Shown here: positions 16,486-22,178 of the stretch, one piece after another | Layout: every line of letters starts with the position of its first letter | Position numbering within the stretch: the stretch's first letter is position 1 | NCBI GenBank assembly: GCA_024644185.1 | Contig: JAHELM010000001.1 | Span: 1-26,049, forward strand | Length of the DNA: 26,049 nt | Direction: 5' to 3' | Origin: Rhodospirillales bacterium | GTDB taxonomy: Bacteria; Pseudomonadota; Alphaproteobacteria; UBA8366; JADFVY01 | Program-made: the position numbers and the translations under genes | The notes under the pieces: model-generated | Told to the model about the DNA's origin: nothing | Databases searched by the model: none | The model's input: only the letters and a program-made list of their open reading frames with translations

Positions 16486-16496
16486 CCGCCTATTGT
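16468..16496 (+). promoter_or_regulatory. Sigma70-type promoter for the ilv operon, overlapping the miaA 3' end
   Basis: TTGACC-N17-TATTGT, 150 bp upstream of the ilvB ATG. Confidence 0.6.
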
Positions 16497-16645
16497 CCGG
16501 CGGCCCGCGAACCCGGCACGGATCGCGGACGGGAATAATCACGGTTTACCTGCGGAACCGGCGGCTTTGCACTGCTCCGCCCGAATTGGCGAAGCGGCAT
16601 GGGGAGGCCATTGTGGCCGTCGCCGGCAATGAACGGAGAAGATAT

Positions 16646-18990: not shown

Positions 18991-20019
<1,029 letters not shown>

Positions 20020-20045
20020 TACGTGCACCTGCACGGTGAGTTGGG

Positions 20046-20078
20046 ACGGGGCGCGGCATATGGGTTGCGCCCCGTTTT
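20046..20078 (+). terminator. Intrinsic terminator of the ilv operon
   Basis: Stem ACGGGGCGC (20046-20054) / GCGCCCCGT (20067-20075), extendable by G-U pairs, followed by TTTT. Confidence 0.8.
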
Positions 20079-20345
20079 CGTTTCGGCCATGCGACCCCCG
20101 CCGCGTATCGCGCACAGCGCGAACGCCGAATCCGCGCGTCGCGTTAACCGAAAATCGTTGCGGGGCCCTGTGGAAAAGTCGTAAAGATTGACCCGATGTT
20201 ACGGCGGCGTCGCGACCGATTCGGTGGTTTGCGGGAAAATTCAAAATATTCCCGCTTGCCGGTGAATGGCTTAGGATTTATTTAATCAAATTGGTCGTAT
20301 CACTTCGCCACGGCGAAACACCAAACGAGAGAGCAATACGCGGAC

Positions 20346-20501
20346 ATGCACGGAATTGTGAATACCATAGCCCCGATGGGGATGGGTATTGCCGCCGGCA
20401 CCGCGCGCTCAATCGGCCGTGAGATTCGCCCGGGGCAGGGGTGCCCCGTGGGTCTGGATCTGCTTGGCGGTGGGCTGCTTCCGCGACTTACCCGCCCCTG
20501 A
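20346..20501 (+). CDS. Putative leuA leader peptide (up to 51 aa)
   Basis: MHGIVNTIAPMGMGIAAGTARSIGREIRPGQGCPVGLDLLGGGLLPRLTRP*. All 6 Leu codons fall in the last 15 codons. Alternative in-frame starts at 20376, 20382 and 20448. Confidence 0.65.
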   Translation: MHGIVNTIAPMGMGIAAGTARSIGREIRPGQGCPVGLDLLGGGLLPRLTRP

Positions 20502-20585
20502 GCGTGGCTGCCGTCATGAATCGTGACGGCATGCGTTCAGGGGAATATTCGCGGAAACCCCAGTTCACGTGACCCAGGCAGAGGA
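20449..20585 (+). promoter_or_regulatory. Putative leucine-responsive translational attenuator of leuA
   Basis: Long hairpin 20495-20543 with no T-tract. UCUGCUUGG (20459-20467, on the Leu codons) pairs with CCAGGCAGA (20574-20582), which overlaps the SD AGAGGA. Confidence 0.6.
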
Positions 20586-20594
20586 TTCTTGACG

Positions 20595-22178
20595 ATGACG
20601 ACGACCACGGACCGTATACAACCAGATCAGACCGGAGACGTATCCAACCGCGTCCGGATATTCGACACCACGCTGCGCGATGGCGAGCAGTCGCCCGGCT
20701 GCTCGATGAATCTGGATGAAAAACTGCGCGTTGCCGACGCTCTCGAGGAAATGGGCGTCGACATCATCGAGGCCGGCTTCCCGATCGCCTCGAACGGCGA
20801 TTTCGATGCGGTCAGCGCGATTGCCAAACGGATAACCAAGTCCACCGTGGCCGGACTGGCCCGCGCCAACCGCAAGGACATCGATCGTGCCTGGGAGGCG
20901 CTGCGTCACGCCGCGCGCCCGCGTATCCACACCTTCATCTCGACCAGCCCGCTGCACATGAAGTTCAAGCTGCAGATGGAACCGGATGCCGTGCATGAGC
21001 GGCTGATCGATGCGATCGCTTATGCCCGCAACCTGTGCGACGACGTCGAGTGGAGTCCCGAGGACGGCACCCGCACCGAGCACGATTTCCTGTGTCGCTG
21101 CGTCGAGTCGGCGATCAAGGCCGGAGCCACGACGATCAATGTCCCCGACACCGTCGGCTACACCGTGCCGGAAGAATTCGCGGCGCTGATTTCCATGCTG
21201 ATGAACCGCGTGCCGAACATCGACAAGGCGGTGATCTCGGTGCATTGCCACAACGATCTGGGTCTGGCGGTTGCCAACTCCCTGGCTGCCGTCCGCGTCG
21301 GCGCGCGGCAGGTGGAATGCACCGTCAACGGTATCGGCGAACGCGCCGGGAACGCCGCCATGGAGGAAATCGTCATGGCGCTGAAGGTGCGCCAGGACGT
21401 GCTGCCCTTCCATACCGGCATCGCCAGCGAATACATCACCCAGACGAGCCATCTGGTTTCCACCATCACAGGTTTCCAGGTGCAGCCGAACAAGGCGATC
21501 GTCGGCGCCAATGCCTTCGCCCATGAATCCGGTATCCACCAGGATGGCATGCTGAAGCACGCCGGTACCTACGAGATCATGACGCCGGAATCGGTGGGGC
21601 TGCACAAGTCGACCCTGGTCATGGGCAAGCATTCCGGCCGCCATGCCTTCCGTTCGAAACTGAAGGAAATGGGCTACGAACTGGGCGAAAACGAGTTGGA
21701 AGACGCCTTCCACCGGTTCAAGGACCTGGCGGACAAGAAGAAGGACGTCTACGACGAGGATATCGTTGCCCTGGTCGACGACCAGATGCTGCATGCCAAC
21801 GATCGCGTCCGTTTCGTCTCGCTGCAGGTGATCGCCGGGTCGAAGGGGCCGCAATCGGCCGAACTGGAACTCGCCGTCGACGGCGAAACCAAGACCACCA
21901 GGGCGACGGGTTCGGGCCCGGTCGACGCCACTTTCAATGCCATCAAATTGCTGTTTCCGCATAGCGCTCGCCTGCAACTCTATCAGGTGCATGCGGTGAC
22001 CGAGGGCACCGATGCGCAGGCTCAGGTCACGGTGCGGCTGGAGGAAGACGGCAAGACCGTGAACGGCCAGGGCGCCGACACGGACACGCTGGTCGCCTCC
22101 GCGCGCGCGTATATCCACGCGCTGAACAAACTATTGGTAAAACGTGAAAAATCGGCGCTGTCGGCGATGTCCGCCTGA
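20595..22178 (+). CDS. leuA: 2-isopropylmalate synthase, 527 aa
   Basis: IFDTTLRDGEQSPG, HCHNDLG, GIGERAGN, HESGIHQDG, and C-terminal regulatory domain (GPVDA, GTDAQAQV). ATG 20595 lies 9 nt after AGAGGA. Confidence 0.97.
   Translation: MTTTTDRIQPDQTGDVSNRVRIFDTTLRDGEQSPGCSMNLDEKLRVADALEEMGVDIIEAGFPIASNGDFDAVSAIAKRITKSTVAGLARANRKDIDRAWEALRHAARPRIHTFISTSPLHMKFKLQMEPDAVHERLIDAIAYARNLCDDVEWSPEDGTRTEHDFLCRCVESAIKAGATTINVPDTVGYTVPEEFAALISMLMNRVPNIDKAVISVHCHNDLGLAVANSLAAVRVGARQVECTVNGIGERAGNAAMEEIVMALKVRQDVLPFHTGIASEYITQTSHLVSTITGFQVQPNKAIVGANAFAHESGIHQDGMLKHAGTYEIMTPESVGLHKSTLVMGKHSGRHAFRSKLKEMGYELGENELEDAFHRFKDLADKKKDVYDEDIVALVDDQMLHANDRVRFVSLQVIAGSKGPQSAELELAVDGETKTTRATGSGPVDATFNAIKLLFPHSARLQLYQVHAVTEGTDAQAQVTVRLEEDGKTVNGQGADTDTLVASARAYIHALNKLLVKREKSALSAMSA

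Follow-up and report, generated by a model that had tools for sequence, protein, structure and literature searches.

Leucine codons of a leader open reading frame are predicted to pair with the leuA Shine-Dalgarno sequence in a terminator-less leader family of Alphaproteobacteria

Upstream of leuA, the gene for 2-isopropylmalate synthase, a 26,049-nucleotide stretch of DNA from a Rhodospirillales bacterium (contig JAHELM010000001.1, positions 1 to 26,049; here called the window) carries a short leader open reading frame (ORF) whose leucine codons are predicted to pair with the Shine-Dalgarno (SD) sequence of leuA. The gene order in this region is ilvH, ilvC (ending at 20019), a 575-nt gap, leuA, and mreB. 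The regulated gene, leuA (20595 to 22178, on the forward strand, like all of the features described here), starts with the ATG at 20595, behind the SD sequence AGAGGA at 20580 to 20585; its orthologues in relatives are 73 to 86% identical, and the context of the ATG is unchanged. The leader ORF, identified from its translation and its homologues, occupies positions 20346 to 20501. It has 51 codons, begins with ATG, and ends in LDLLGGGLLPRLTRP followed by UGA, as had been noted in an earlier reading of the sequence alone (the original prediction). Its six Leu codons, CUG at 20454, CUG at 20460, CUU at 20463, CUG at 20475, CUU at 20478, and CUU at 20487, all lie within the last 16 codons, with none in the first 36, and the last of them stands four codons before the stop.

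The end of the leader ORF is folded into a stem-loop with an apical extension, the stop-codon hairpin (20495 to 20543), which was delineated by folding, a terminator scan, and family covariation. In its basal stem, CCCCUGAGCG (20495 to 20504) pairs with CGUUCAGGGG (20534 to 20543) around UGCCGUCA/UGACGGCA. The original prediction placed the start of this hairpin on the leader stop codon, and the basal arm does contain the UGA: CCCCUGAGCG begins on the last base of the codon before the terminal Pro codon and includes both CCC (20496 to 20498) and UGA (20499 to 20501). The last Leu codon lies 9 nt upstream of this Pro codon, which is at the base of the hairpin.

When positions 20430 to 20600 were folded, the minimum-energy structure was a single continuous rod of -91.8 kcal/mol; dinucleotide-shuffled sequences averaged -68.1 +/- 4.3 kcal/mol (z = -5.46; 0 of 200 as good), and on these modelled energies the rod is not a chance fold. 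From the outside inward, it is predicted to consist of an SD-sequestering helix (20452 to 20467 with 20574 to 20593), two nested helices (20470 to 20477 with 20561 to 20568, and 20479 to 20486 with 20549 to 20556), an unpaired internal loop, CUUACCCG (20487 to 20494), and the stop-codon hairpin. The 5' strand of the outermost helix, the anti-SD strand, includes the Leu codons at 20454, 20460, and 20463; the 5' strands of the nested helices, for which there is partial covariation in relatives, include those at 20475 and 20478; and the loop carries the last Leu codon. On its 3' strand, the outermost helix includes AGAGGA and ends 2 nt before the AUG; within it, 20456 to 20467 connects Leu codons with the SD region at 20574 to 20589. 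The 9-bp helix originally proposed, UCUGCUUGG (20459 to 20467) with CCAGGCAGA (20574 to 20582), with one G-U pair, was recovered and covers the first three bases of the SD sequence; the fold lengthens it to the full outermost helix and adds the two nested ones. The alternative pairing suggested at the same time, between UGGGUC (20449 to 20454) and GACCCA (20571 to 20576), is also complementary as described.

The effect of a ribosome on this fold was modelled by blocking a 27-nt ribosome footprint while folding positions 20346 to 20625 and calculating the cost of opening positions 20578 to 20597 (SD to AUG). Opening cost 9.3 kcal/mol in the free RNA and 3.4, 4.0, 3.8, 5.2, 4.2, and 2.8 kcal/mol with the A site on the six Leu codons in order; with the A site on the stop codon it was 7.3 kcal/mol, because the SD helix re-forms behind the terminating ribosome. 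In this model, the window behaves as expected of a leucine-starvation ON switch. Folding with and without the Leu codons blocked was the check proposed for the idea that these codons act as an anti-SD sequence and that a Leu-stalled ribosome unmasks the SD; the fall in start-site cost from 9.3 to 2.8 to 5.2 kcal/mol supports that idea in silico, together with the Leu-base enrichment and the cognate duplexes described below.

The leader in the window is typical of a family of terminator-less, leuA-specific leucine leaders that is widespread in Alphaproteobacteria and absent from Rfam. A covariance model of the leader core, R1, was built from 51 sequences and is defined by a CUU Leu codon, A-N4-C, and CCC plus a stop codon that form the 5' side of a 10-bp stem upstream of leuA. 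The window matches R1 at 20457 to 20547 with 69.4 bits (E = 3.7e-15), a score that is partly circular since the window is among the 51 seed sequences, and this is the sole significant match in its own genome. With one genome sampled per family, R1 matched in 41 of 151 alphaproteobacterial families, once per genome, and each of the 29 class-level matches that were fetched lay immediately 5' of leuA on the same strand; conversely, 59 of the 80 leuA loci fetched with the LeuA protein of the window carry the element. Matches in a phylum-wide sample were confined to the Alphaproteobacteria, except for one marginal match (E = 4e-4), and two heavily sampled families in that sample gave none (0 of 36 and 0 of 17). 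The common design is an ATG-initiated ORF that is Leu rich near its end, a near-invariant CUU-A-N4-C-CCC-stop whose last seven bases open a strong hairpin, and then leuA. It recurs before leuA in Dongiaceae, Stellaceae, Kiloniellales, Hyphomicrobiaceae, Azospirillaceae, Acetobacteraceae, Micropepsaceae, Terasakiella, and Rhodovibrio; Terasakiella and Rhodovibrio sodomensis are cultured carriers. No family of Rfam 15 matched positions 19900 to 20750 of the window (cmscan, E up to 10; two chance matches only) or any of 10 diverse homologous loci (E up to 1), and full-text literature searches, whose coverage did not extend to the survey of Vitreschak et al. (2004), did not turn up any account of such a leuA leader in Alphaproteobacteria. 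The class-wide family, the covarying stop codon within the hairpin, and the fixed 9 nt between the last Leu codon and the hairpin base all go beyond the original prediction.

Within the family of the window itself, three loci from one genus (L004, L008, and L010) retain the leader start ATGCACG and the GGCAGAGG SD context. They are without the canonical CUU-stop hairpin and most of the Leu codons and do not match R1; within this one family, the element seems to have decayed or been remodelled.

Comparative data on the stop-codon hairpin are extensive. In the family alignment, 97.5% of 510 cells in the basal 10 bp are paired, and this value falls to 54% when the partner is shifted by one column. 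Both sides have changed in 22 cells of the stem, compared with a mean of 2.0 in shuffled alignments (0 of 500 shuffles as high). These changes extend to the stop codon, where a G-to-A change at the second base is accompanied by a C-to-U change in its partner (UGA with UCA in 44 members and UAA or UAG with U in 5), indicating that the stop codon and the pairing are both maintained. The median hairpin energy of 68 family members is -25.4 kcal/mol. In Terasakiella, leuA is present as two tandem paralogues, both preceded by a leader of their own, and in the second leader (L107:3073-3245) the ORF ends in ...LLARLSNL, with CUC-UAA replacing CCC-UGA; the hairpin is preserved there through a G-U pair and a UAA/UUA pair. 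It therefore appears that Pro at the last position is dispensable and that the pairing is obligatory.

The same alignments bear on the coding status of the leader. Across the family, the leader ORFs are ATG initiated and mostly 33 to 53 codons long; two families, that of the window and its sister, keep the ATG in frame at 50 to 53 codons despite strong sequence divergence, including in a lower-GC member. The reading frame that runs into the hairpin stop has a median open length of 59.5 codons in 54 homologues, compared with 32.5 and 3 codons in the other two frames. With codons counted back from the stop in these 54 leaders, codon -1 is CCC in 53; codon -2 is NGC, encoding R, C, S, or G; codon -3 begins with A and encodes S, R, T, I, or M; codon -4 is Leu in 53 and CUU in 52, and is followed by an almost invariant A; codon -5 is CGA, otherwise CUC or CUG; and codon -6 is Leu in 45. 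From -7 to -15, Leu accounts for 15 to 46% of residues, compared with approximately 6 to 17% farther upstream. CUU makes up 44% of the Leu codons in the leaders but 9% of those in four genes of the window, a rare-codon bias typical of attenuators. SD-like sequences 5' of the leader ATG are modestly better than background (medians of -3.9 and -2.7 kcal/mol, respectively). Based on the in-frame ATG, the compensated stop codon changes, and the retention of Leu while the residues at -2 and -3 vary, we infer that the leader is translated. Five of the leader peptides had no match in Pfam or NCBIfam, and an exact look-up returned only a "hypothetical protein" in Terasakiella.

The variability of -2 and -3 as amino acids, together with the CUC that replaces CCC in Terasakiella, shows that the constraint beside the stop acts on the RNA and not on a peptide motif. 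Nascent-peptide arrest at an RP-stop sequence, as in TnaC, was considered and set aside, since positions -2 and -3 vary as residues and the conserved bases are those that the RNA needs. In most members, the conserved CUUAG (20487 to 20492 in the window and the homologous positions) also places a UAG in the +2 frame directly after the last Leu codon, which accounts for the open length of three codons in that frame; this stop could cap the products of frameshifting when ribosomes wait at a hungry CUU, or it may simply follow from the RNA constraints.

Predicted folds from many lineages place the hairpin at the tip and pair the bases immediately upstream of it with the leuA SD sequence, and the pairs involved vary by lineage (CUGCUCCUUCG/CGAAGGAG, GGGCUCCUUAGG/CGAGGAGCCC, and CUGCUUCUUGCGG/CCGCAAGAAGG). 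The mean probability that the SD core pairs with the 3' part of the leader is 0.60 in 54 leaders, compared with 0.38 for shuffled sequences, and 54 of 68 nonredundant leaders pair with more than 30% of their SD. The Leu codons take a disproportionate part in this pairing: they supply 19% of the bases considered and receive 55% of the pairing (p about 3e-9), and the last 36 nt of a leader form a stronger duplex with their own leuA start region than with noncognate ones (means of -15.2 and -12.6 kcal/mol; p about 1e-5), although both p values are inflated because the genomes are related.

Taken together, we think it probable that this element is a leucine-responsive, ribosome-mediated translational attenuator of leuA. 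In this mechanism, a leader of approximately 50 codons would be translated ahead of leuA, with the Leu codons among its last 16 or so codons forming the 5' strand of the rod, the leuA SD region forming the 3' strand, and the stable hairpin, which holds the leader Pro and stop codons, at the tip. When leucine is ample, ribosomes would pass the Leu codons and terminate inside the hairpin, and the rod would close behind them and bury the leuA start; in the window, although not as a general rule, it would close even with a ribosome still at the stop codon. When charged tRNA-Leu is scarce, a ribosome waiting on a Leu codon would occupy the anti-SD strand, so that the hairpin would remain folded, the SD would be free, and leuA would be translated. 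We infer both the stalling and the response of leuA expression to leucine. A transcription terminator would play no part, although untranslated leuA might lower mRNA levels secondarily through polarity. The original prediction had likewise dispensed with a terminator. The sequence that follows the hairpin in the window, AAUAUUCGCGG, has no U-tract, the terminator scan found no terminator in 20346 to 20595, and in the 10 nt past the hairpin the longest T run exceeds 2 in 5 of 68 members and stays at 2 or less in the other 63.

Several observations weigh against this interpretation, in addition to the relatedness of the genomes. The predicted pairing of the SD core to the leader is 30% or less in 14 of the 68 leaders. 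The core of the helix beside the SD, UCUGC/GCAGA, is invariant in 13 relatives from the window's clade, which is consistent with constraint but means that no covariation can be obtained from it; the covariation across orthologues that had been proposed as a check is thus present in the stop-codon hairpin and not in the SD-proximal core of this clade. When the window rod was mapped by column onto these relatives, only the hairpin and the UCUGC/GCAGA core transferred cleanly; the inner helices shifted register and pair in only 42 to 68% of cells on the register of the window, although RNAalifold found compensated changes in one of them. The start codon of the window leader has a weak SD sequence (-3.2 kcal/mol), and those of the family are modest. 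Across the 68 leaders, the median opening cost was 9.6 kcal/mol for free RNA, 7.4 for the Leu-codon mean, 6.1 for the best Leu codon, and 7.5 for the stop codon. Whether stalled at Leu or positioned at the stop codon, a ribosome therefore lowers this cost by a similar amount, clean on/off logic is seen only in some clades, including that of the window, and a general rule that the stop-codon state is the off state is unsupported. Public metatranscriptomes held no usable coverage and no 5' or 3' ends for the organism of the window. Simple masking leaves the strict CUU-A-N4-C spacing to the hairpin unaccounted for. Finally, mutation data from Streptomyces on an analogous leuA leader, cited by Seliverstov et al. 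(2005; PMC1262725), did not fit attenuation.

The metatranscriptomes did contain conserved leuA coding pieces from other organisms and one contig end that resembles the stop hairpin of a relative, and DNA runs contain the locus. This contig, from a sediment metatranscriptome (run X10), aligns to the 3' arm of the hairpin at 20527; its upstream part begins like CCCCUGAGCG and then diverges. The leader hairpin of a relative thus appears to be present in an RNA library, with DNA carry-over as a possible source.

The spacing between the last Leu codon and the hairpin invites a more specific proposal. The front edge of a ribosome reaches about 9 to 12 nt ahead of the A-site codon, which here is just to the hairpin base, so that a Leu-stalled ribosome leaves the hairpin folded and one that moves onward must melt it. 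The hairpin may therefore serve as a nucleation point for the rod, as an insulator, and as a position marker that separates stalled from terminating ribosomes. It is possible, although we advance it tentatively and would sooner doubt than assert it, that a hairpin on the leader's stop codon, 9 nt past the last Leu codon, acts as a ruler in a purely translational, class-wide leuA riboregulator whose architecture is distinct from and parallel to, perhaps convergent with, that of the actinobacterial LEU element. A ribosome waiting on Leu would abut the hairpin without melting it and leave the SD free, and a passing ribosome would unwind the hairpin and terminate inside it, after which the rod would re-close.

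The fixed 9-nt spacing suggests that ribosome position relative to the hairpin is read out, which also favors the leading alternative, transcription attenuation without a canonical terminator. As in the tna operon, the position of the ribosome on the leader would govern termination, Rho dependent or factor assisted, in the stretch from the hairpin to leuA, and SD sequestration would be secondary or irrelevant. The leader, its Leu codons, and the stop-codon hairpin do resemble the front half of a classical attenuator, the Pro codon before UGA recalls TnaC, and an untranslated leuA would invite Rho anyway. The hairpin itself, however, was rejected as a terminator: it is followed by no U-tract in the window or in 63 of 68 relatives, and its regulatory sign would be wrong, because a Leu-stalled ribosome leaves it intact and a terminating ribosome melts it. 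Likewise, the 51 nt past the hairpin (the median distance from the hairpin to the leuA start in 68 members is also 51 nt, with an interquartile range of 48 to 56) contain about 13 C and 12 G and are largely base paired; not being richer in C than in G, they would make a poor Rho loading site. The preference of the SD for Leu-codon bases would also go without an explanation. We regard this alternative as unlikely.

A constitutive role for the element, as a translational coupling or mRNA-stability device that sets a fixed level of leuA without sensing leucine, is more improbable still. It would accommodate the family-wide result that any ribosome at the 3' end of the leader, stalled or terminating, lowers the start-site cost, and the great stability of the hairpin; however, it leaves unexplained why the element precedes only leuA and why Leu, and in particular its rare codon CUU, is constant at -4 and -6 and overrepresented through 15 codons. 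Least probable of all is a structured RNA read by a trans-acting factor (a protein, tRNA-Leu, or a small molecule) with an incidental or secondary open frame: CGACUUA..GCCCCUGA is the most conserved segment, at the nucleotide level and including third codon positions, while the residues at -2 and -3 vary, CUUA lies in the unpaired internal loop of the window fold, and the authors of the LEU element study favored a protein factor (PMC1262725), but stop codon identity is kept through compensated changes, an ATG frame of similar length persists even in highly diverged sequences, some of them lower in GC, the variability of the hairpin apex counts against a ligand pocket, and there is neither a T-box- or riboswitch-like conserved core beyond the hairpin base nor an Rfam match. 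A T-box-like reading of the unpaired CUUA was rejected for the same lack of a T-box core and Rfam match and for the strong maintenance of the in-frame stop.

The proposed translational attenuation of leuA by its leader has precedents in both its sensor and its output. To our knowledge, nearly all characterized amino acid leader-peptide attenuators end in a transcription terminator. The classical leu leader of Escherichia coli and Salmonella (leuL; Rfam RF00512, Leu_leader) likewise has Leu codons that include rare ones, senses charged tRNA-Leu by stalling, and precedes the first gene of the leucine pathway. In contrast, leuL works through terminator and antiterminator hairpins with a U-tract and has 28 codons with four Leu codons in a row, whereas the leaders described here have approximately 50 codons and no U-tract, their proposed output is SD access, and the Leu codons of the window are scattered. 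The window and the homologous loci contain a Leu-codon leader ORF but no match to the RF00512 model and no terminator, and the leader is therefore outside the classical Leu leader family. Control of amino acid genes by leader peptides is shared with the trpL attenuator of Sinorhizobium meliloti, which is experimentally established, and with predicted alphaproteobacterial attenuators, but those systems are terminator based. Predicted attenuators of amino acid genes in Alphaproteobacteria are said to have been surveyed by Vitreschak and colleagues in 2004; the original prediction mentions earlier computational forecasts of such leuA leaders, and this one may already be among them. On the output side, in ermC, cat, and cmlA a ribosome stalled in a short leader ORF opens an SD-hiding helix, and no terminator is involved. 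Folding and comparative enrichment predict the same sequestration of the SD of the regulated gene by a segment of the leader ORF here; however, those genes respond to a drug and a specific nascent peptide, whereas the signal proposed here is a shortage of charged tRNA-Leu, and the residues next to the stop are not conserved as amino acids.

The closest described analogue, compared by description, is the actinobacterial LEU element, in which an upstream ORF contains a run of Leu codons that pairs with the leuA SD sequence around a conserved pseudoknot or alternative hairpin (Seliverstov et al. 2005; PMC1262725). The authors of that study doubted ribosome-mediated control and proposed a protein factor (PMC1262725). 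The two elements share a Leu-codon ORF before leuA, a base stem between the Leu run and the SD, a compact middle, and the absence of a terminator; a base stem of this type is predicted in the window, and the enrichment of Leu bases opposite the SD holds in 68 relatives. Unlike the LEU element, with its pseudoknot or alternative hairpin and its different phylum, the element described here has in its middle a simple hairpin that takes in the Pro and stop codons and keeps a constant distance to the final Leu codon. With folding tools that predict nested pairs only, nested helices together with the covarying hairpin explain the region where a LEU-type pseudoknot would lie.

Other features of the locus may add to the control of leuA. 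Just 5' of the Leu-codon tract, folding predicts a small hairpin within the leader ORF (20431 to 20448; GGGGCA..UGCCCC plus flanks), and relatives keep this pairing through two-sided changes (columns 19/32: CG in 8 and GC in 4); it might slow ribosomes or stop upstream RNA from competing with the anti-SD strand. Alignment of 10 upstream regions from the same family revealed invariant column blocks in an AT-rich box (20256 to 20303; GCTTG..CTTAGGATTTATTTAAC..GGTCGTATCA), which is 45 to 90 nt 5' of the leader ATG and contains a TTA-N9-TAA inverted repeat. Judged from conservation, this box could be a promoter, a LysR- or Lrp-like regulator site, or both, in which case it would add a layer of transcriptional control to leuA, and it possibly marks the 5' end of the leader transcript; a scan for the sigma-70 consensus called no promoter. 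Approximately 40 nt past the ilvC stop, a terminator-like hairpin with a T-rich tail (20060 to 20085) suggests that leuA and its leader are transcribed apart from ilvHC. No leader ORF rich in Ile, Leu, or Val was found in the 160-nt gap between miaA and ilvI (16486 to 16645); ilvIH attenuators of Alphaproteobacteria have reportedly been predicted before.

In conclusion, the leuA leader of the window belongs to a family that can be recognized by R1, and this model can be used for genome annotation, where the leader is currently unannotated or listed as a hypothetical protein. The element could also offer a compact, leucine-responsive translational switch for engineering. If its Leu codons do form the anti-SD strand, then amino acid sensing by ribosome stalling would be wired directly to translation initiation in a major bacterial class, and the family would add a second, tractable case to that of the actinobacterial LEU element. 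It would also explain how the committed step of leucine synthesis is controlled in GC-rich Alphaproteobacteria, in which leuA is a stand-alone gene.

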